This document shows, piece by piece, positions 42,246 to 51,107 of a DNA stretch of 64,000 bases. Position 1 is the first letter of the stretch. Each line of letters opens with the position of its first letter. Source of the DNA: Eubacteriales bacterium (GTDB lineage: Bacteria > Bacillota > Clostridia > Oscillospirales > CAG-272); contig JBBAEK010000003.1 of assembly GCA_041655935.1 (NCBI GenBank), forward strand, positions 45,030 to 109,029, written 5' to 3'. Made by a program: the position numbers and the translations under genes. Under the pieces are notes generated by a model. It saw nothing but the letters and a program-made list of their open reading frames with translations. It did not search any database and was not told where the DNA came from.

Positions 42246-43108
42246 ACGGCGGCAATCCTTTCATAGTAAGTTTTCATAGCCAGCGCGTCCTCCGCCATGC
42301 TGCCGGCCGACTCGCAGATGATGGTGGGGGTCAGGTTTTCGCGGCAGATCGTTTCCATCAGCGGTTCAAAATCCGGCCCGTAGGTTTTGTCCGCAAAGGT
42401 CAGGTGCCGCTTTTCCCCCGCCCCTGTCCACTCCAGGCGGGAAAAGTGACAGTGCAGGTTGCGGGCCACCGAGTCGCCAAGCTGACTGCCAATGCGGTCA
42501 AACACCCGCCTGTAGTCGTCGCCATCAAGGAAAGCAGTGCCGCCCTCCCGCGCATGCATATGCCCAAAGTCCACCACAGGTACCAGCCGCGGGTCTATGA
42601 CGCACAGCTTCAGCACCTCGTCCAGGGTGCCCAGCTGATTGACCTTGCCCATGGTCTCCAGCCCGATGCTCACCCCGCCCGTGTCCAGCTTCGCCAGCGT
42701 CTGACAGAGGGTGTCCGCCGCCAATGCCATGGCTTCCTCCCGGCTGATTTTGGCGGCGCTGCCGGTGTGCACCACAATCACCCGGGCACCCAGCAGTTTG
42801 GCAGCCCACAGGCTTTTCTCAATATAGTCGATGCTTTTCAGGCGTTTGTCGGGCTCCACGCCCGACAGGGAAATATAGTAGGGGGCGTGCAGGGACAGGT
42901 GAATGCCCCGCGTCGCGGCGGCCGCCCCGATCTCCCGCAGGGTCGCCTCGCCCGCCGTGATGCCGCTGCCCCCCTGATATTCATACGCATTGAGCCCAAG
43001 GGACGCCAGGAAGGCGGGCGCATCCACCGTCCGCTTAAAACCGGCGGCGTAGAAACTCTCGCTGTTGCCGGCCGGACCGAACCAGGGACTCTTTCTGTTA
43101 CTTTCCAT
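42242..43108 (-). CDS. AP endonuclease family 2 (endonuclease IV-like) TIM-barrel protein
   Basis: HLSLHAPYYISL, VIVVHTGS, GLETMG, DFGHMHA resemble the Nfo metal-binding motifs. ATG 43108 overlaps the yqeG stop. Confidence 0.6.
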   Translation of the reverse strand: MESNRKSPWFGPAGNSESFYAAGFKRTVDAPAFLASLGLNAYEYQGGSGITAGEATLREIGAAAATRGIHLSLHAPYYISLSGVEPDKRLKSIDYIEKSLWAAKLLGARVIVVHTGSAAKISREEAMALAADTLCQTLAKLDTGGVSIGLETMGKVNQLGTLDEVLKLCVIDPRLVPVVDFGHMHAREGGTAFLDGDDYRRVFDRIGSQLGDSVARNLHCHFSRLEWTGAGEKRHLTFADKTYGPDFEPLMETICRENLTPTIICESAGSMAEDALAMKTYYERIAAV

Positions 43109-43613
43109 GTTTTTTCTTCTCTTCCCTTTTGTGATAGGCTGCCAGGATGGGGCGCTCAAACAGCCGCTTGAGGCGTGTGAAGCAGTCGGTCTTGTCCTTG
43201 AGCGGCGAGACCAGAATGGTGCGCACCCCTGCCCACTTCCCCGCCAACACGTCGGTAAAAATCTGGTCACCCATCACCGCCGTGTTCTCGCGGTGGCTCT
43301 CAAGGACACGCATGGCTTCCTTCATGGAGCGGATAAACGGCTTTTTGCTGGCGGCAAAAATCGGGATGGCAAGCTTTCGGTTGAAGAGCTCTACCCGCGC
43401 CGCCTTGTTGTTGGAGACAAAGGCGGTACGCACCCCCGCCTCATGCAGTCCGGCAAACCAAGCCAGCACCTCGTCCGACGGCTCGGCGTCCTCATAGCGC
43501 GCGATGGTGTTGTCCAGGTCCAGCACCAGCGCCCGCACCCCCAGCGCCGCCAAAAAGTCGGGTGTGACCTCTCTGAAATGCTCAAAATAATAGTCGGGCT
43601 GTAAAAAACTCAT
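43098..43613 (-). CDS. yqeG: YqeG-family HAD-IIIA phosphatase
   Basis: LVLDLDNT (DxDxT), SNN, GDQIFTD. True ATG at 43613; the listed 285-aa ORF extends spuriously across the tRNA-Gly gene. Confidence 0.8.
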   Translation of the reverse strand: MSFLQPDYYFEHFREVTPDFLAALGVRALVLDLDNTIARYEDAEPSDEVLAWFAGLHEAGVRTAFVSNNKAARVELFNRKLAIPIFAASKKPFIRSMKEAMRVLESHRENTAVMGDQIFTDVLAGKWAGVRTILVSPLKDKTDCFTRLKRLFERPILAAYHKREEKKKHGK

Positions 43614-43811
43614 GATCCGCCATCCCTTGCTTGGAGTTGTTGTGTCCATTGTACCACATTCTTCCCTCCTGCACAAGGCTTTTGTTGGTTTCCTCCTGCC
43701 TCGCCCGGGTGAAAAAGTCATGCCGTCGCAGGTAGCCTTCCGCCGTCCACTCTGCGGAAAAAGCGGCTTTGCGCCGACGGAAAAGAATTTTCTTTTTTTA
43801 GCGGTTCGGGC

Positions 43812-43840
43812 TTGACAAAGAAATGCGCTTGTATTATAAT
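43812..43840 (+). promoter_or_regulatory. Perfect consensus sigma-A promoter of the tRNA-Gly/tRNA-Arg pair
   Basis: TTGACA (43812-43817), 17 nt, TATAAT (43835-43840). Confidence 0.65.
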
Positions 43841-43918
43841 ATAAAAGCTGCTGAAGAATCGAGGTACCATTGAAAGGACTGCTTTTTCGGTACGCACGGG
43901 TCAAACTGCTGAACGAAC

Positions 43919-43992
<74 letters not shown>

Positions 43993-44003
43993 AGCAGCCA
44001 TAT

Positions 44004-44079
44004 GCGCCCTTAGCTCAGTGGATAGAGTTCCCGGCTACGAACCGGTAGGTCGCAAGTTCGAATCCTGCAGGGCGCGCCA
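44004..44079 (+). tRNA. tRNA-Arg (anticodon ACG), CCA encoded
   Basis: Acceptor GCGCCCT/AGGGCGC. Anticodon loop CTACGAA. T loop TTCGAAT. Confidence 0.9.
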
Positions 44080-44088
44080 TAAAAGAAA

Positions 44089-44122
44089 CGTCTTTTGTCT
44101 ACCAAGACAAGAGGCGTTTTTT
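44089..44122 (+). terminator. Rho-independent terminator of the tRNA pair
   Basis: 12-bp stem 44089-44100 / 44105-44116 (two G-T pairs), then TTTTTT. Confidence 0.6.
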
Positions 44123-44173
44123 CTTGCTTTTCAGGGCAAATATGCGAAAAATCGGGCAAAAATAAGGGAAAAT

Positions 44174-44216
44174 GGGCTTCGGAACGGTCGATCGGCTGTT
44201 CCGGAGCCCGTTTTTT
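44174..44216 (+). terminator. Second, orphan rho-independent terminator (no upstream ORF)
   Basis: 12-bp stem GGGCTTCGGAAC (44174-44185) / GTTCCGGAGCCC (44198-44209), then GTTTTTT. Confidence 0.5.
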
Positions 44217-44258
44217 GTTTGCAGCAGGCAGAAAACGCGGCAAAAATGCTGGTACACT

Positions 44259-44294
44259 TTTGGGTAGTCTTTACGCCTGCAAAGACTACCCAAA
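44259..44294. repeat. Perfect 14-bp inverted repeat with 8-bp spacer at the left island border
   Basis: TTTGGGTAGTCTTT-ACGCCTGC-AAAGACTACCCAAA, read directly. Confidence 0.9.
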
Positions 44295-44402
44295 GAAGTT
44301 GCCCCACTCGGATTTGAACCTTCCTCCGAAGAAAATTTACAAAGAAAAATTCAGAAGTAACGAAAAAGTGTATGCTAACCCCTTCCATTTTTCGACGATA
44401 TG

Positions 44403-44411
44403 TGCTATACT
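44403..44411 (+). promoter_or_regulatory. Extended -10 promoter element upstream of the WYL regulator operon
   Basis: TGCTATACT (44403-44411), 35 nt before ATG 44446 (GGAGG RBS 44436-44440). The -35 is poor (TTCCAT). Confidence 0.4.
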
Positions 44412-44445
44412 ATAAGGTGAATATTTGTAGTTTACGGAGGCGGCC

Positions 44446-45474
44446 ATGGGAAATGAAAGCTCACAAAAAATAAAATTACTTAAACTCATGGAGATGCTAC
44501 GCCGCGAGACCGATGAACAACATCCGATGCGCCGCAAAGAAATATGCGAACGTCTGGAAGCGATGGGTATCAGCTGCGACATCCGCACGTTGTCAAAAGA
44601 CATGAAGGCACTCAACGATTATGGCTTCGAGGTAATGAGTTATTTCGTTGACCACGAAAAATGCTACTATGTGCCGGAAGATAATTTCTCGGATGCAGAG
44701 CTCAAGATTTTGATCGACGCAATTCAGGCAGCGAGCTTCATAACCGATAAGAAAACGGCGGAACTCATCGATAAGGTCGCGGCGCTTGGCGGCAGCCACA
44801 AAGCAGAGCTGCTGAAGGACAATATGGTTTGCTTCAACACGCGGAAGCACCACAACGAAATGATCTATTACGCGGTCGATCGCATTGAAACAGCGATAAA
44901 GGCGAACAAGAAGATCATCTTCTATTATTATGATCTGGATGAGAACGGACAGAAGCACTATCGCCGCGATAAGCACCACTATCAAGCAGAGCCGGTTGCG
45001 TTGGTATTTCACGAAGACAACTACTACCTCGTTTCGTATTTTCCGCAAAAGGATTGCACCGTGAATTATCGGCTTGATCGCATGGAACAGGTCGAAGTCA
45101 AGGACGAGGACATTTCGGATAAAGCAAAAGAACTGCGCAGCAGCATTGCCGGATACACAGAATCGGCGTTCAAAATGTACGGCGGGGATCCACTCGACGT
45201 GACGCTGCAGTTCGAGGACAAATTGATAGGTGTCGTCTACGATAAATTCGGCGAGGACACAAAGATGCTTCGCATCAACGATACGACGATCATCGCGGCC
45301 GTGAAGGTACAGGTCAGTCCGACGTTCTGGGGCTGGATGTTCCAGTTCGGCGGAAAGATGACGATCAACTCGCCGGATGAACTGAAAGAGGAATACAAGA
45401 AGCAGGTAGAGGCTTTGCTTTTCAAAGGAGACAATTTAGTTCCGTTTTACAATAATGAAAGGACAAAAGAATGA
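44446..45474 (+). CDS. wHTH-WYL-WCX transcriptional regulator (BrxR/CapW-like architecture)
   Basis: N-terminal HTH (KEICERLEAMGISCDIRTLSKDMKALNDYGF). WYL core (IIFYYYDLDENG...AEPVALVFHEDNYYLVSYF...NYRLDRM). C-terminal extension domain of about 100 aa. Confidence 0.8.
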   Translation: MGNESSQKIKLLKLMEMLRRETDEQHPMRRKEICERLEAMGISCDIRTLSKDMKALNDYGFEVMSYFVDHEKCYYVPEDNFSDAELKILIDAIQAASFITDKKTAELIDKVAALGGSHKAELLKDNMVCFNTRKHHNEMIYYAVDRIETAIKANKKIIFYYYDLDENGQKHYRRDKHHYQAEPVALVFHEDNYYLVSYFPQKDCTVNYRLDRMEQVEVKDEDISDKAKELRSSIAGYTESAFKMYGGDPLDVTLQFEDKLIGVVYDKFGEDTKMLRINDTTIIAAVKVQVSPTFWGWMFQFGGKMTINSPDELKEEYKKQVEALLFKGDNLVPFYNNERTKE

Positions 45475-46928
45475 AAACGATGCAAAAAAGTATTACGACA
45501 GAAAAAGAGAATGGTCGTTTTTACACACCAATCTTTATTGTTGATAATATTCTTGATTTGGCTGGGTATTATGGTGCGAAAATACTAAAAAAGCACGTGA
45601 TTGATAATAGCTGTGGCGATGGAGCATTTTTGACTCAAATTGTTCGTAGATATTGCACAGAAGCAATTAGTCAAGGGTATAGTATTGATGATTTAAGATC
45701 AGATTTGGCAACATATATACACGGAATAGAATTAGAAATAGTTGAGCAGAAAAAATGCATAGAAAACATTAGTCGCGTAGCGGAACAGTTCGATGTATTT
45801 GAGGTTGAATGGAATATTCTTTGTGGAGACGCATTAGCGATAAAAAGTTTTGATGGGAAAATGGATTATGTTTTAGGTAATCCGCCGTATGTTCGTGTGC
45901 ATAATTTGGGAGACTCGTTCGATGAAATAAAGAAGTTTTCTTTTGCACAGAACGGGATGACAGATCTTTTTATCGTGTTTTATGAGCTTGGGATCAAAAT
46001 GCTGAACGAAACCGGAACGCTCGGATATATTACCCCGAGTTCATACTTCAATAGTATTGCGGGTGCATACATGCGGAAGTATTTGGCGCAAGAAAAGCTT
46101 CTCACGACGGTTGTTGATTTGAGACACTTTCAAGCATTTGATGCCACTACGTACACTGCAATTACAATACTAAAAAAAGGTGAAGAAAATCAAAGCGTAG
46201 ATTATTACCGTTTTGACGAAAAGAACAGGGTTCCGTATTATGTGGAAACTGTAGAGCCAGACGATTATCAAATAGCCGGTAATTATTATTTTGCAAAGAA
46301 AGAGGAATTGCATCTTCTACACAAAATTCTTTTCAACTTGGGGAAAAGTGACGTAGCGGTTAAGAACGGATATGCAACGCTTTGTGATGGCGTTTTTATT
46401 AACGAATTCGATTTTCAATCAAAATATATTATTCCCGTGATAAAGTCTTCAAAAGGGGTAGAGCAGAGGATTTTCTATCCGTATGATCATAAGGGAAATT
46501 TAATTTTGGAAGACGAGTTACAAAAAGATGAAAAACTGTATCGTTATCTTGTGGATAACAAAGCTCAATTAACTAAGCGTAGTAATGAAAAAGATGCAGC
46601 AGTTTACTGGTATGCATTTGGACGTAGCCAAGCAATTAGTGATACATACAAAAACAAACTGGCAATTAATTCTTTGCTTCGTTCAAAAGAGGACTTTAAG
46701 TTTACGGAGGCACCGCCCGGAACGGGAGTCTATGGTGGATTGTATATTGTAAGCGATACCATTAACATGAAAGAAATTATTGCGGTGTTGAAAACGGATG
46801 AGTTTATATCATATATAGAGTTATTAGGAAAATATAAAAGTGGTGGTTATTATACTTTTTCATCAAAAGACGTAAAAGCATATCTTGATTACAAATTTTC
46901 ATACGACGGAGGAATATTTTCATGTTAA
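45471..46928 (+). CDS. Gamma-class N6-adenine DNA methyltransferase (Eco57I/TaqI-like catalytic domain + C-terminal target-recognition domain)
   Basis: Motif X GRFYTP, motif [13 protein letters not shown], motif [11 protein letters not shown], then about 250 aa of TRD. ATGA start/stop overlap with the WYL gene. Confidence 0.85.
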
Positions 46929-47653
46929 ACAATCAACAATTTTTGGAAGTAGTAAGGGAGTCATTTAAGACTTATCTGAGTGTAGACACATCAAGAAGCA
47001 CAGCAAAACTCAAAAGCTTACACGGGCATATAGCAAGGGATATAAAGGAGCTCTTTGGTCCCGAATATACAGTGCTGGCACAAGGAATTGGAAACGATAA
47101 AGAAGGAAGCATCCAAGGAAGGTATTACCCTAAAAATGTTGACATAACGGTGAGCAAGCGCGGAAAACCGGTTGCGGGTTATGCTGTAAAGTTTGTCATG
47201 AGAAATTATTCTCAAAATAGCAACAACTATTTTGAAAACATGCTTGGGGAGACTGCGAATATTAGGTCGAATTCGATCCCGTATTTTCAGATTTTTATTA
47301 TTTTCGAGCAAGTGCCATATTATAAAAACGGTGGCGCTTTTCAGAAATACGATGTGTTGACCGAACATAATTTGGATAAGTATTTTGCGCTTTCAAAAGA
47401 CGATCCGGCTTCGTATTTTCACACGCCGGATAAAACGCTTATTGTCATACTGCATTTGAAAGAAAAAAGTCCAGCATACAGCTTTATTGATTCCAAAGAT
47501 TATGCAGATTATTACAATAGCGTAATAAACGATACTGATTTAATGCGTTACTCGACAAAAATTCGTGATACATTTGATGACAGCGTTGTTCTGAATGATT
47601 ATGAAAAGTTTATTAAAAAAACATATTTTATAGCAGAGGGTAAAACAAAATAA
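46922..47653 (+). CDS. Uncharacterised 243-aa protein, positional candidate for the cognate restriction endonuclease
   Basis: ATG overlaps the methyltransferase stop (ATGTTAA). Only a weak PD-(D/E)xK-like trace (NVDITV-x11-YAVKF, followed by ENMLGE). No family recognised by eye. Confidence 0.4.
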
Positions 47654-47664
47654 GACATAACATA

Positions 47665-47699
47665 AAAATGCCTCGCACCAGAACGGTACGAGGCATTTT
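47665..47699. terminator. Bidirectional terminator between the operon (+) and the SLOG gene (-)
   Basis: 11-bp perfect stem AAAATGCCTCG (47665-47675) / CGAGGCATTTT (47689-47699). Confidence 0.6.
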
Positions 47700-47708
47700 G
47701 CGTTACAG

Positions 47709-48215
47709 TTAGAATTTGAGGACATGGCGCACGGCGACACCGTGCTTCTCGGCGTACACGATCGTATTGCGCGTTCCGCCAGATTCGCCATTATATGCAG
47801 CGATCACACGAGCGGAGTGATCGACCATCCACTCGTTGCGGATTTGGAAGCAGGCACGGCTGTAAGACGGGCAGATGTACCGGACGAGATCCGCAGCGGC
47901 AAGGATGTTGTTATAACGGCGCTGCCAATCCGGCGACCATGAACGCTCGAATCCTTCATACGGGCTTGCGCAGATCAGGTGGAGAGGGCGGCCAGCCGCT
48001 TTCAGCTCGAGCACAATTTCCGCTGCCCAGATGTCAACGCCTCGAGCCATGCCGGTGATGAAAGTAATAAAGCCATCATCGGCGGCAACAATGATCTCAC
48101 GACGCAGCGCGGCGATCACTTCTTTTTCGGGAACATTCAGTTTTTCGGGACGATGCCCGGTAAAGCAGCAACGATGCTGCAGGAGTTCGGCTTCTGATGC
48201 AGGCACAGCGAACAC
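47709..48215 (-). CDS. SLOG-superfamily DUF1273 (YpsA/YoqJ-like) protein
   Basis: Diagnostic CFTGHRPEKL N-terminal motif, GMARGVDIWAAE, GGTRNT near the C-terminus. GTG start at 48215 or 48206. Confidence 0.7.
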   Translation of the reverse strand: MFAVPASEAELLQHRCCFTGHRPEKLNVPEKEVIAALRREIIVAADDGFITFITGMARGVDIWAAEIVLELKAAGRPLHLICASPYEGFERSWSPDWQRRYNNILAAADLVRYICPSYSRACFQIRNEWMVDHSARVIAAYNGESGGTRNTIVYAEKHGVAVRHVLKF

Positions 48216-48324
48216 CTCCTGTCAAGATAATAATCGTGTTCTATAACGGCGCGGAATACACCCGCGCATACTCGAACGGGCAGCCCGGAAACAAGCCCGG
48301 TTGGAACAAGAAGGAGGAAGCATA

Positions 48325-49962
48325 ATGGCAACGGCAACAACGGCAAGACGAATCGTGCGTGAGATCCCGCGTATCAACCTCTTCGATACGACAGCGACGC
48401 AGACACAAAGACGGTTGCTTCAGGTAGCAGCATACGCGCGAGTATCGACCGAAAAGGAAGAACAGGAAGACAATTTCGAGCGGCAGGTTGAGCACTACAC
48501 GCAGATGATCGCCAGCAACAAAGACTGGGAGAAGGTTGACATCTATGCAGACCCCGGCATCAGCGGCACGAGAGCAGAAAAACGACCGAACTTCATGCGC
48601 ATGATAAACGACTGCCGCGCGGGCAAGATCGAAAAGGTGCTCGTCAAGAGCATCAGCCGATTCGCCAGAAATACGGTCGACGCGCTGCAGTACATACGCG
48701 AACTCAAAGACCTCGGCATCAGCGTGTACTTCGAGAGTGAGAACATCGATACACTGACGCCCGGCGGCGAGGTGCTCATCACGATCCTTGCAGCGATGGC
48801 CGAGCAGGAATCGCGGACGATCAGTACGAACATCAAGTGGGCATGGCAGCGGAAATTCCAGAACGGCGAAATCATCCTGAACACCGGACTGATGCTCGGA
48901 TATAAGAAAAACGGAAAAGACGAAAACTGTCTGACGGTCTACGTAATCGACGAGGCGGAGGCCGAGATCGTGCGGCGAATATACAGAGAGTTCATCGAAG
49001 GGATAACGGTGACGCGAATCTGCAAAAGACTCGAGGCGGACGGAATCCTTACGCCGCTCGGGAAAACGCACTGGCAGCACAACGTGGTCGAAAGCATCCT
49101 GACAAACGAAAAATACACGGGCAACGCCATCCTCGGAAAGACATATAAACCGGATGTCCTGACAAAACACCGGAAGAAGAATGACGGCGAAAAAGCACCG
49201 ATGTACTACGTAGAAAATACGCATCCGGCGATCATCGACAAAGAGATGTTCGAGATGGCGCAGGCGGAAATGAAGAACCGGCGTGAAGCAGGAACGAGGG
49301 CTGTCGGAAACAGCCGCTTCACCAGCAAGTACCCGTTCAGCGGGCTGCTGGTATGCGGTGAGTGCGGAGCAATGTTACGCAGACAGGTACGCACGATGGG
49401 TACCGGCGAACGGGTAGCAAGCTGGGGCTGCAGTTACAGAATCGTGAACGGGCGAGCGGCATGCGACAGTCACCATGTGCGTGAGGACGTCATGGAAAAG
49501 ACCTACGCAGCCGCGATCAAGCAGATGGCGGACAACGCAGCAGAGGTCATCGAGGCAGTGCGGGAAGGGACGCAGCTGGCGATGCAGCCGGACAATGCAG
49601 AGGAGCGCGAGGTGGTCGAACAGGAAATCATCGAGCTGCAGGAGACGGCGCTCACACTCCACAAGAACAAGCAAAGCGGACTCATCGCGGCAGAGGCATA
49701 CGATACGGAGATCCGCGCATGCAGCGAGCGAATGAAAGAGCTCGAAGCGCGGCAGGCCGAGATGAAAACGGCAGCAACCAGATACGCCGAAGTCAAGACA
49801 TGGATCGACGCCTTCGAGCAGGGACTGCAGGACGGCAGCATAGCGGAAACGGACGACGCCGGATTGATGAAGACACTGGTAGAACGCATCACCGTGAACA
49901 GCGACGGAATCGAGGTCGAGTTCAAATGCGGAGCCCGCGTGCAGCAGAAATATGTCAGATAA
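48325..49962 (+). CDS. Large serine recombinase (resolvase catalytic domain + recombinase domain + zinc ribbon + coiled coil)
   Basis: AAYARVSTEKE catalytic Ser, SRFARN, GY..NG...L.IDE.EAEIVRRIY, CGECGAMLRR...WGC zinc motif. ATG 48325 with GAAGGAGGA RBS. Confidence 0.9.
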   Translation: MATATTARRIVREIPRINLFDTTATQTQRRLLQVAAYARVSTEKEEQEDNFERQVEHYTQMIASNKDWEKVDIYADPGISGTRAEKRPNFMRMINDCRAGKIEKVLVKSISRFARNTVDALQYIRELKDLGISVYFESENIDTLTPGGEVLITILAAMAEQESRTISTNIKWAWQRKFQNGEIILNTGLMLGYKKNGKDENCLTVYVIDEAEAEIVRRIYREFIEGITVTRICKRLEADGILTPLGKTHWQHNVVESILTNEKYTGNAILGKTYKPDVLTKHRKKNDGEKAPMYYVENTHPAIIDKEMFEMAQAEMKNRREAGTRAVGNSRFTSKYPFSGLLVCGECGAMLRRQVRTMGTGERVASWGCSYRIVNGRAACDSHHVREDVMEKTYAAAIKQMADNAAEVIEAVREGTQLAMQPDNAEEREVVEQEIIELQETALTLHKNKQSGLIAAEAYDTEIRACSERMKELEARQAEMKTAATRYAEVKTWIDAFEQGLQDGSIAETDDAGLMKTLVERITVNSDGIEVEFKCGARVQQKYVR

Positions 49963-49966
49963 GAGG

Positions 49967-50010
49967 AAGCCCTCGGCAACCGGCAGCAGTCGGAAGCCGA
50001 GGGCTTTTTT
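49967..50010 (+). terminator. Rho-independent terminator after the recombinase gene
   Basis: Stem AAGCCCTCGG (49967-49976) / CCGAGGGCTT (49997-50006), then TTTTTT. Confidence 0.65.
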
Positions 50011-50034
50011 GCGTCCCGTGCAGGCGGTTTTCAG

Positions 50035-50085
50035 ATGTATCTTTTGGGTAGTCTTACCTCCGAAATGTATCTTTTGGGTAGTCTT
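50035..50085 (+). repeat. Two perfect 21-nt direct repeats (30-nt period) at the right island border
   Basis: ATGTATCTTTTGGGTAGTCTT at 50035-50055 and 50065-50085. They share CTTTTGGGTAGTCTT with 44257-44271. Confidence 0.9.
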
Positions 50086-50090
50086 TGACA

Positions 50091-50128
50091 AGAAAAAGCA
50101 GAGGTTTGTTTAACAACAAATCTCTGCT
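50091..50128 (-). terminator. Rho-independent terminator of the DUF1638 gene (host side of the island junction)
   Basis: 14-bp stem 50097-50110 / 50115-50128 (one G-T pair). On the minus strand it is followed by TTTTTC. Confidence 0.55.
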
Positions 50129-50227
50129 TTATTATTGAAATCCACCCTTGCAACCGGGCGAAATCGCTTCACGGTGAAATCCCGCTTCGCGGTGAGAAAG
50201 CCGCCTCGACGGCGGGTGAGCGGGGGG

Positions 50228-50986
50228 TCAGGAGGGATCGGCGGGCGGGCAGGCTTGGCAGGACAGGATATCGGGGCCGTTTGAGGGCCGGATAGTCTCG
50301 CCCGGCGGTACCACCAAAAAGCGGTCCGGATCCCACTGCCCCGCCAGCATATCCGCCAGCAGTCGGGAGCTGCCGGTCAATCGCTCAAACTGCCAGTGCA
50401 GGAAATCGGCACATGCCTCGGTGTACGCCGCCGCGCTCTCAAAGGGCAGCTCTTTCCATTCAATGTATTTGCAGTGTTGGTATCTGGTGAGCCAGCTTTG
50501 TTCTTCTGCCAGAAGATAAGTGGCGTTATCTTCTCCGTATTGCTCGCAATACTCCTTGAAAAGCTGGTCGTATCTTTCCTTTGAGGGCATGGGGGCGTTT
50601 TCCAGCCAGCCCTTTGAGTACCAGTAAATGCCGCCGTGGCAGGCGTCAAAGTAGTCCCGGTAGCGCTCCTTGCTGCCCAAAAGCAGCGTGATGCAGTCGT
50701 GTGCCCTCGGGACAACCAGCGTATGCCGTGCGGAGTGCAACCCCACAATGCCGTTGCTGCATAGCCCGTAGCCCAGCAGAATGGCGTCGAAGTACATCTC
50801 CTTGCTATGGGTGTCGCACTCTGCATCAATGGCGTCAATTTCCGCCTGCAGCAACTCGCGCAAACGCGCGGGGGTGTTGTGAAACCCCTGTCTTAGGTAG
50901 GTGATGTCAATGAAGTTGTCACTTTGGGCGCACAGATGCGAGCATTCCCTTTGCAGGACCTTGCAGGCGAGTAATTTATAATTCAT
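50228..50986 (-). CDS. DUF1638 domain protein
   Basis: MNYKLLACKVLQRE...ILLGYGLC.NG.VGL...VVPRAHDCITLLLGS pattern typical of DUF1638. ATG 50986. Confidence 0.65.
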   Translation of the reverse strand: MNYKLLACKVLQRECSHLCAQSDNFIDITYLRQGFHNTPARLRELLQAEIDAIDAECDTHSKEMYFDAILLGYGLCSNGIVGLHSARHTLVVPRAHDCITLLLGSKERYRDYFDACHGGIYWYSKGWLENAPMPSKERYDQLFKEYCEQYGEDNATYLLAEEQSWLTRYQHCKYIEWKELPFESAAAYTEACADFLHWQFERLTGSSRLLADMLAGQWDPDRFLVVPPGETIRPSNGPDILSCQACPPADPS

Positions 50987-51107
50987 AGAGGACCTCAAGG
51001 ACAGGCGCACTGCGGACAGTGTAAAAAAACCTGTTCTTTTTGTTTGTTTTATGCTATACTAAGGTAACAAGCGGTGTCGGGAAAAGGACGAAAGCGAGGT
51101 GGGGTGA

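Follow-up and report, generated by a model that had tools for sequence, protein, structure and literature searches.

Does a WYL-domain regulator gene that shares its reading direction and its ends with a DNA methyltransferase gene and a third gene of no recognisable kind head a dedicated, sensor-gated defence system, or did its two neighbours arrive separately? The question is raised by a locus within a 64,000-nucleotide stretch of contig JBBAEK010000003.1 of an Eubacteriales bacterium (assembly GCA_041655935.1; the whole stretch is called the window below), where three overlapping open reading frames (ORFs) encode, in order, a winged helix-turn-helix (wHTH)-WYL-WCX regulator (cistron 1, WYL), an N6-adenine methyltransferase (cistron 2, M) and a small protein (cistron 3, X). 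These same-strand ORFs, proposed in an initial annotation made from the sequence, were confirmed at the positions given in Table 1. We find that M and X constitute a conserved, mobile and autonomous module that is chimerically joined to the WYL gene here, and we consider it probable that a mobile type II restriction-modification (R-M) cassette was captured behind a WYL regulator and is now likely run from the WYL promoter. The arrangement is real, and its constituents, a type II R-M system and a defence locus headed by a defence-associated WYL (daWYL) regulator, are both of already known kinds.

M and X form a pair that occurs without the WYL gene

X homologues were sought in one genome per species, which gave 379 loci, and the best 80 were examined (L-numbers denote homologue loci or contigs compared with the window, and P-numbers homologue proteins). 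An M homologue lay directly upstream of X on the same strand in 77 of the 80 loci, ending within a few bases of the X start, and in the remaining three the contig ended less than 160 bp upstream of X. These M homologues are 41-88% identical to window M and full length, including the C-terminal recognition domain, and the cassette hosts comprise Clostridia, Saccharibacteria, Bacteroidales, Victivallales, Opitutales and Kiritimatiellota; the identities of M and X to the window proteins correlate with each other (r = 0.91, n = 71). The M stop and X start usually overlap by 4-14 nt (4 nt in 20 loci; 7 nt in 13, as in the window, where ATGTTAA at 46922-46928 is shared), and this overlap of stop and start, which the cassettes conserve, would couple synthesis of the restriction enzyme (R) to that of M. 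In some members of the X family the two are one M::R polypeptide: P0135 (697 aa) aligns with M across residues 4-462 (45% identity) and with X across residues 466-689 (46%), P0499 (728 aa) has a length that is the exact sum of M and X, and P0188 (788 aa) and P0214 (794 aa) are likewise single polypeptides.

No WYL gene was found upstream of the cassette in any of the 80 loci (0/80; tblastn, phmmer, and Pfam on 105 upstream ORFs), where the upstream neighbours are heterogeneous housekeeping or integrase genes, and neither M nor X was present in any of 82 loci of WYL homologues (0/82). The WYL-M-X triad, whose conservation the initial annotation had proposed to survey, is thus not conserved. The same annotation had reckoned with a chance neighbourhood should the relatives of cistron 3 normally be found without WYL genes, and this is in substance what we observed, WYL being absent in 80 of 80.

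The WYL gene and the cassette meet at a recombination junction

DNA homology to the WYL locus L081 (94.7%) extends from 44077 to 45395 and DNA homology to the WYL-less cassette L001 (85%) from 45409 to 47654, and a three-way alignment places the switch inside a short microhomology (~45396-45423). WYL residues 1 to ~325 are native, and the tail K327-E342 (16 residues; 45424-45471) is derived from the cassette leader and predicted to be disordered (predicted local distance difference test, pLDDT, <50). As the native WYL stop is gone, the ORF continues for 16 codons to a TGA that overlaps the M start. The shared ATGA (45471-45474) and the ATGTTAA between cistrons 2 and 3 were both read directly in the sequence, as first described; since the breakpoint lies in the last WYL codons, however, both the ATGA overlap and the tail of 16 residues arose as side effects of the insertion, and the translational coupling of WYL and M, previously regarded as a feature of the system, is a by-product of the junction as well. 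The supposed single AT-rich unit has two compositions, with 47% GC in the WYL gene (GC at third codon positions, GC3, 0.62) and 36% in M and X (GC3 0.32 and 0.36), against a host background of 57-58%. Judged by these sequence comparisons, M-X and the WYL gene are different in origin. An assembly chimera at the WYL/M junction was ruled out by L164 (SRR8449813, an independent Logan assembly), which shares this exact junction and, after it, the YpsA and serine-recombinase genes as well.

X is very probably the restriction endonuclease of the pair

M matched Pfam Eco57I (4e-23) and N6_Mtase (6e-16) and, over its full length, PADLOC MTase_II (3.7e-139); the SAM-binding motif and the catalytic GNPPY motif can both be read in its translation, and the motif order X-I-IV is followed by a C-terminal target-recognition domain. 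Its nearest solved relatives are adenine-specific methyltransferases (MTases), M.BseCI included, the closest structures covering only the catalytic domain. The description of cistron 2 as a gamma-class N6-adenine MTase with a target-recognition domain of its own is upheld by these matches.

Searches with X alone and with 50 diverse members of its family against Pfam, NCBIfam, PADLOC, PHROGs and PDB sequences gave nothing consistent, and no match to X turned up when plasmid and phage collections were searched by tblastn. The family comprises 2,435 proteins at E≤1e-3 in a 90%-clustered collection (591 clusters at 50% identity). Public names of X relatives are all 'hypothetical protein' and those of M relatives 'N-6 DNA methylase' or 'hypothetical protein', and because these names are generic, no REBASE-type name or published specificity can be attached by homology.

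The structure of X was predicted with AlphaFold (AF2) from the 50 diverse members, and the model is confident (pLDDT 95.9; predicted template modelling score, pTM, 0.92). In a Foldseek search of PDB, its seven best matches were all restriction or PD-(D/E)XK nucleases (R.BspD6I small subunit, BsaWI, BstEII, AF1548, BbvCI, EcoT38I and BsmI), with probabilities of 0.93-0.99 for the top four and with template modelling (TM) scores of 0.24-0.36 and E-values of 5e-3 to 3e-2, which are weak. Among predicted viral structures the best match reached E=3e-12 (TM 0.69/0.76), and the second was a protein of Synechococcus phage S-CAM7 named 'Restriction endonuclease' (2e-8). Residues E61, D74, K90, E105 and E110 are at least 90% conserved across the 50 members; in the model, D74 and K90 lie on adjacent strands and E105/E110 in the next helix, a layout compatible with a PD-(D/E)XK site in which the second acid would be supplied from the helix. 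The pairing and co-variation with M, the natural fusions, this model and the loss of CTNNAG described below make it very probable that X is a PD-(D/E)XK type II restriction endonuclease (REase) of the conventional sort.

The initial annotation could not place cistron 3 and allowed that it might not be a conventional REase. The first statement holds insofar as no curated family matches X, and does not hold insofar as X has a nuclease-like fold and is strictly paired with M; the second is contradicted, X behaving as the R of an ordinary M-then-R type II cassette. We also considered X as a methyl-dependent (type IV) nuclease, and this was ruled out by its strict coupling or fusion to M and by the avoidance of the unmethylated motif in genomes (described below). 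X-like folds were also noted in giant viruses (A0A076FM80 of Aureococcus anophagefferens virus, AaV, and A0A1C9C5K1 of Heterosigma akashiwo virus 01), which are also reported to carry CTNNAG-type methyltransferases or methylation (PMC12700378) and may therefore encode related R-M pairs.

The X family can be regarded as one of 'dark' REases, as PADLOC models M but not X; model-based tools therefore probably score M-X as lone methyltransferases. Such mis-scored systems are found in gut Clostridia, Bacteroidales and Saccharibacteria, and a profile built from the family alignment would close the gap.

CTNNAG is depleted around the cassettes

R-M systems select against their own recognition sites. 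We compared hexamers in the flanks of the 80 cassette loci and the window, with the cassettes removed, with those in the 82 WYL-homologue loci without M-X as controls. When the 2,080 hexamer classes were ranked by depletion against the controls, CTNNAG sequences took all of the first seven places and 9 of the top 11. The pooled observed/expected ratio of CTNNAG (order-4 Markov model) was 0.37 in cassette loci versus 0.83 in controls, and the other fifteen abNNb'a' families ranged from 0.81 to 1.01, CTNNAG alone being depleted. Per locus, the median CTNNAG density relative to the mononucleotide expectation was 0.11 (n=72) versus 0.72 in controls (n=62; Mann-Whitney p=1.4e-15), and L003, L046, L051, L062 and L080 have zero CTNNAG in ~14 kb, where ~50-55 were expected. 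The cassettes themselves hold 102 sites versus 463 expected (0.22), with none in 23 of 72; the window cassette has 1 versus 6.9 expected, and the native part of the WYL gene 3 versus 3.6. This purge is evidence that X cuts DNA. Around many cassettes we counted 0-1 sites of this 4-base-specific motif versus ~55 expected in ~14 kb, a loss that far exceeds the usual site avoidance of R-M systems.

The motif has precedents. M.Eco57I, a gamma-class MTase, has degenerate CTNNAG specificity (PMC3874165), and CTNN6mAG methylation has been described in Barnesiella intestinihominis (bioRxiv 10.1101/2022.11.07.515285); this genus is represented among the cassette loci by L057 and L072. A CTNNAG motif is also reported in Mycoplasma dispar (PMC6385981) and in AaV, a giant virus (PMC12700378); the viral fold matches of X include proteins of AaV and Heterosigma akashiwo virus. 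Taken from the depleted motif and from this literature, the target of M is most probably CTNNAG, with the adenine methylated, and M-X is a probable CTNNAG-specific type II R-M system in which M would methylate the site and X would cleave it when unmethylated. To our knowledge, there is no characterised prototype REase of CTNNAG specificity, and the predicted specificity might yield a new reagent. One published method uses a five-enzyme mixture that covers part of CTNNAG (bioRxiv 10.1101/2022.11.07.515285).

The reading proposed in the initial annotation, a dedicated three-component system in which a WYL sensor gates M and an X that is not a conventional REase, can be weighed at this point. The three overlapping ORFs accord with it, as does the lack of matches to X in Pfam, NCBIfam, PADLOC, PHROGs and PDB sequences, but the triad is not conserved in either set of loci, the WYL/M junction is chimeric and recent, the fold of X resembles that of nucleases, X goes strictly with M, at times in one polypeptide, and one palindromic motif is purged from carrier genomes, as for a classical type II enzyme. 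We judge this reading highly improbable, and in place of a new methylation-linked defence type we see an ordinary type II R-M system in a triad that is not conserved.

The WYL regulator heads a slot for exchangeable defence cargo

Cistron 1 matched Pfam WYL (6e-11) and WCX (1.4e-5) and the PADLOC WYL models (5e-26), and showed no HTH match in Pfam. In its AF2 model, which is moderate (pLDDT 68, pTM 0.36), the N-terminus forms a winged helix (helix-helix-helix-strand-strand), and the WCX domain is complete through residue 325. The WYL domain was thus detected by a hidden Markov model search, and the proposed architecture of wHTH, WYL and C-terminal extension is borne out. Homologues numbered 3,045 at E≤1e-3, and the best 120 listed are 311-341 aa long, nearly all of them 325-333 aa.

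All 31 significant Foldseek matches of the WYL protein are wHTH-WYL-WCX regulators. A profile search of PDB returned DriD (2e-4) and PafBC (9e-3) only, and Foldseek ranked DriD (2e-12) and PafBC (3e-12) ahead of BrxR (4e-6) and CapW (5e-6). The RLDRM segment of the WYL domain aligns with DriD/PafBC, and a strand reading EDNYYLVSY in the window protein and its homologues has NYYLV and not RWHVR, the conserved WYL-domain motif of CapW/BrxR (PMC11662680). The designation of cistron 1 as BrxR/CapW-type is therefore right for the architecture but not for the closer relationship, RWHVR being absent and DriD/PafBC being nearer by profile and fold.

Homologues with at least 54% identity to the window WYL precede varied defence cargo, including type I R-M, GmrSD, HNH nucleases and helicases. 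At 34 of 55 non-redundant WYL loci, the WYL stop has a same-strand ORF of 150 aa or more beginning no further than 150 bp away, and several of these ORFs overlap it. The 45 first-downstream proteins include 12 type I HsdM, 4 Eco57I-type MTases, 4 HNH/WHH/colicin-DNase nucleases, 3 ResIII/DEAD helicases, 3 dynamin-like GTPases, 2 GmrSD and 2 Cas3-like proteins. A 97%-identical WYL (P0270, in L081) is followed by GmrSD and type I R-M, and an 83%-identical one (L082) by type I R-M. The view of the WYL gene as first cistron of a unit with defence genes is in line with its homologues, which likewise precede same-strand defence genes. The systems found beside BrxR homologues include BREX, type IV (17.6%) and type I (16.2%) restriction and CRISPR-Cas, among others (PMC9122601); CapW/BrxR associate with R-M systems, and single-stranded DNA (ssDNA) releases CapW from DNA (PMC11662680); a 2026 preprint sorts 13,508 daWYL proteins into 47 structural clusters, BrxR/CapW making up just 12.5% (PMC13622015). 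The varied cargo behind the WYL homologues is this published daWYL pattern (PMC9122601, PMC11662680, PMC13622015).

Control of the captured cassette

We propose that recombination placed the cassette within the final codons of a resident wHTH-WYL-WCX gene, which would have stood in a small tRNA-adjacent island with a serine recombinase and whose downstream slot holds other defence cargo in relatives. The insertion would have cost the WYL gene its stop, given it the disordered 16-residue tail and the ATGA overlap, and kept only 62 bp of the cassette leader. Most other cassettes have a strong TTGACA...TGnTATAAT promoter 35-60 bp upstream of M, which is absent in the window. M-X would accordingly be transcribed mainly from the WYL promoter, because the strong promoters of its relatives are missing here and the WYL promoter is conserved. 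In other contigs, most WYL homologues have an extended -10 (TGnTATAAT/TATACT) at the corresponding upstream position; the element TGCTATACT, already recognised at 44403 in the initial annotation, is thus more than a chance match. GGAGG lies 5 nt ahead of the WYL ATG. By analogy with ssDNA-sensing WYL regulators, the WYL protein would sense ssDNA and modulate its own promoter, and basal M-X expression would come from read-through and perhaps also from the leader element (a consensus match at 45428-45456), which could provide basal M-X transcription. Since type II R-M needs continuous methylase, the control would be leaky, tuning or boosting expression instead of switching it on and off; a strict off/on switch would be lethal because methylation decays and induction then cuts host DNA. 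With this proviso, the promoter comparison makes control of M-X by the WYL promoter likely.

The sign of that control is where the evidence divides. In many homologue loci, the -10 is followed at a distance of 6-7 nt by a palindrome of the GGTATAACTATACC type, whose position favours repression, although the equivalent window sequence is not palindromic, whereas the inverted repeat upstream of the window promoter and the DriD/PafBC affinity favour activation. The WYL protein could accordingly be a DriD/PafBC-like activator that turns on M-X, or another target bearing TTTGGGTAGTCTT, only when ssDNA accumulates. DriD and PafBC are the closest solved relatives by both profile and fold, NYYLV stands in place of the RWHVR of the CapW/BrxR repressors, and the perfect inverted repeat, ~110 bp upstream of the -10, has a position more typical of an activator site. 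Set against this, a type II R-M system that is off by default would be expected to let methylation lapse and then cut its own host's DNA once induced, the WYL promoter should work alone given its good extended -10, the palindrome right after the -10 in many homologue loci has a repressor-like position, and the WYL fold model is only moderate. We regard a strict activator as unlikely.

The 13-mer TTTGGGTAGTCTT has four copies in the window and occurs nowhere else in the 64 kb: two form part of the inverted repeat at 44259-44294, and two further, direct copies (50043-50055 and 50073-50085) lie just 3' of the serine recombinase gene, so that the copies bracket the segment from WYL to recombinase. 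Outside the window it was found only in L081; as it is confined to the window and this 97% relative, it cannot be generalised as a conserved WYL operator. TTTGGGTAGTCTT could serve as a recombinase site, mark an end of the island or bind the regulator or another protein, and the copies at 50035-50085 may mark the right end of the island. In L016, L017 and L018, a perfect palindrome, TGCACCTATATAGGTGCA, lies ~40 bp upstream of M between the strong promoter and the M start; together with nearby small ORFs it may represent an operator or controller arrangement of these cassettes' own.

Several observations weigh against a functional cassette under WYL control. The WYL protein is closer to the activators DriD/PafBC than to the repressors BrxR/CapW, the window sequence after the -10, GTGAATATTTGTAG, is not palindromic, and the foreign C-terminal tail might impair the regulator. 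The weak promoter-like match in the leader might free M-X from WYL. As to X, the PDB fold matches are weak, as stated above, and the X family has A, V or I where the (D/E)xK triad would carry its canonical acid. Finally, CTNNAG has not been purged from the window host beyond the cassette (0.71, similar to controls): the cassette being CTNNAG-poor but its host not, the cassette is old and its residence in this host recent, and the activity of the window copy is therefore less secure.

Some of these observations would suit a chance juxtaposition, in which the cassette landed at a recombination-prone spot, M-X is constitutive, and WYL exerts no meaningful control and is perhaps crippled by its tail. 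WYL is absent from the 80 other cassette loci, a promoter-like element lies inside the 62-bp leader, R-M logic demands basal M whatever WYL does, the WYL tail is non-native, and the arrangement is known from a single lineage only. On the other side, the strong TTGACA/TGnTATAAT promoters found in related cassettes are missing from this one, no terminator separates WYL and M and their ORFs overlap, same-strand defence genes at -29 to +100 bp after WYL homologues point to a regulated slot, and the WCX domain is complete to residue 325. A chance juxtaposition seems to us rather improbable, if less so than the strict activator, and we favour capture followed by WYL-promoter control.

A bolder form of the captured-cassette reading is that X founds an un-modelled family of type II REases (at least 2,400 clusters at 90% identity) that cuts CTNNAG and stands here under an ssDNA-sensing WYL protein of an uncharacterised daWYL clade, giving an R-M system inducible by damage or infection. 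We offer this as a tentative possibility, somewhat more plausible than chance juxtaposition and well short of probable. The locus amounts to a natural experiment, in that near-identical WYL genes head either GmrSD with type I R-M or a promoter-less type II R-M. With its breakpoint mapped to ~30 bp, it is suited to asking whether WYL imposes inducibility on captured cargo, and how a type II R-M system tolerates WYL control.

Layout of the island

The features of the locus are collected in Table 1.

Table 1 Features of the WYL-M-X locus and its surroundings (window coordinates).
Feature	Position	Strand	Remarks
tRNA-Gly	43919-43992		precedes tRNA-Arg
tRNA-Arg(ACG)	44004..44079	+	ARAGORN, Rfam; left neighbour of low-GC segment
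Two terminator-like hairpins	44083-44122, 44170-44213	+	directly 3' of tRNA; kept upstream of many WYL homologues
Perfect inverted repeat TTTGGGTAGTCTTT-N8-AAAGACTACCCAAA	44259..44294		~110 bp upstream of -10
WYL promoter	44383..44411	+	weak -35-like TTCCAT 44383-44388; extended -10 TGCTATACT 44403-44411
wHTH-WYL-WCX regulator, cistron 1	44446-45474	+	342 aa
Recombination junction	45396..45423		DNA homology switches from L081 to L001
M-X cassette by DNA homology	45409..47654	+	62-bp leader + M + X; 36% GC
Weak promoter-like element GAGACA-17-AATAAT	45428..45456	+	retained leader; 9/12 consensus positions
Gamma-class N6-adenine methyltransferase M, cistron 2	45471-46928	+	485 aa
X, cistron 3, probable PD-(D/E)XK type II restriction endonuclease	46922-47653	+	243 aa
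Hairpin terminator	47665-47699		15-16 bp stem; common to convergent X and YpsA genes
YpsA/SLOG-family gene	47709..48215	-	Pfam YpsA 5e-23
Large serine recombinase (Resolvase + Recombinase + Zn ribbon)	48301..49962	+	
Two direct copies of ATGTATCTTTTGGGTAGTCTT, 30 bp apart	50035..50085	+	contain 13-mer of 44259-44294 repeat

The hairpin at 47665-47699, annotated as a bidirectional terminator, is real and falls outside the cassette homology; by the T-run criterion it mainly serves the convergent YpsA gene. The YpsA/SLOG gene is a resident of the island outside the operon; it sits between the R-M cassette and the serine recombinase, and PADLOC gave only a marginal ShosA-like match (E=0.01). The serine recombinase is the probable mobility gene of the island. 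Rfam found nothing beyond the two tRNAs in 43000-51000, and the housekeeping flanks of the window have essentially no synteny with related loci.

In L084, L086, L096, L097, L105, L107, L112, L116, L122, L133, L135, L159 and L161, the WYL gene lies ~350-430 bp after a tRNA gene, and the tRNA genes near WYL homologues vary (Arg, Gly, Glu, Val, Trp, Leu and Gln). A conserved hairpin, AAACCTCTTTTGTCT-ACCA-AGACAAGAGAGGTTT, lies directly 3' of the tRNA in the window (44004-44122) and in the WYL loci. The combination of tRNA, hairpin and WYL suggests a family of tRNA-adjacent islands. In several loci, WYL is followed by only the C-terminal part (from residue ~258-298) of a serine recombinase homologue (L083, 1558-2448; L116, 8000-8764; also L117, L119, L122, L097 and L086), and the cargo and the 5' half of the recombinase gene appear to have been deleted together there. 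In L008 (1432-1631), from a distant Eubacteriales metagenome-assembled genome (MAG), a tRNA-Gly matching window 43924-43992 is followed by a homologue of 50093-50218, an alignment which hints that 43993-50092 (tRNA-Arg, WYL, M-X, YpsA and recombinase) is an insertion relative to that genome. The L008 MAG has an M-X cassette of its own ~750 bp further on.

Comparison with known systems

The window WYL resembles the daWYL regulators (BrxR, CapW and WYL-DE) in its wHTH-WYL-WCX architecture and its same-strand position upstream of defence genes, and its homologues precede type I/IV restriction, as those of BrxR do (PMC9122601); it differs in its DriD/PafBC affinity, in having NYYLV for RWHVR, in its two-gene type II R-M cargo and in its chimeric C-terminus. 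DriD and PafBC, which are ssDNA-activated activators, are its best profile and Foldseek matches, but they control DNA-damage regulons, whereas the window WYL stands in a defence-regulator context.

M is like the M.TaqI, M.PstI and M.Eco57I group in its X-I-IV motif order, C-terminal recognition domain and Eco57I/N6_Mtase matches, and the published CTNNAG specificity of M.Eco57I (PMC3874165) coincides with the predicted target of M. M.Eco57I, however, accompanies a large type IIG enzyme, whereas the partner of M is a 243-aa stand-alone nuclease.

C-protein-controlled R-M systems likewise have a type II R-M behind a DNA-binding regulator gene in one operon, but the regulator in the window is a 342-aa WYL protein, of a ligand-sensing class, from outside the cassette, and M precedes R, so that timing is intrinsic. 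No small HTH C-protein ORF or C-box was found in 44080-47700, and Pfam identified only WYL and WCX in cistron 1; C-protein control was therefore ruled out, no such ORF being present.

Defence-island hot spots with exchangeable cargo are a general concept, and the locus fits it in that a WYL anchor and a recombinase flank a slot occupied by GmrSD and type I R-M in L081 and by M-X in the window. It differs from such hot spots in the position of its breakpoint, which lies inside the last codons of the anchor gene, WYL, itself.

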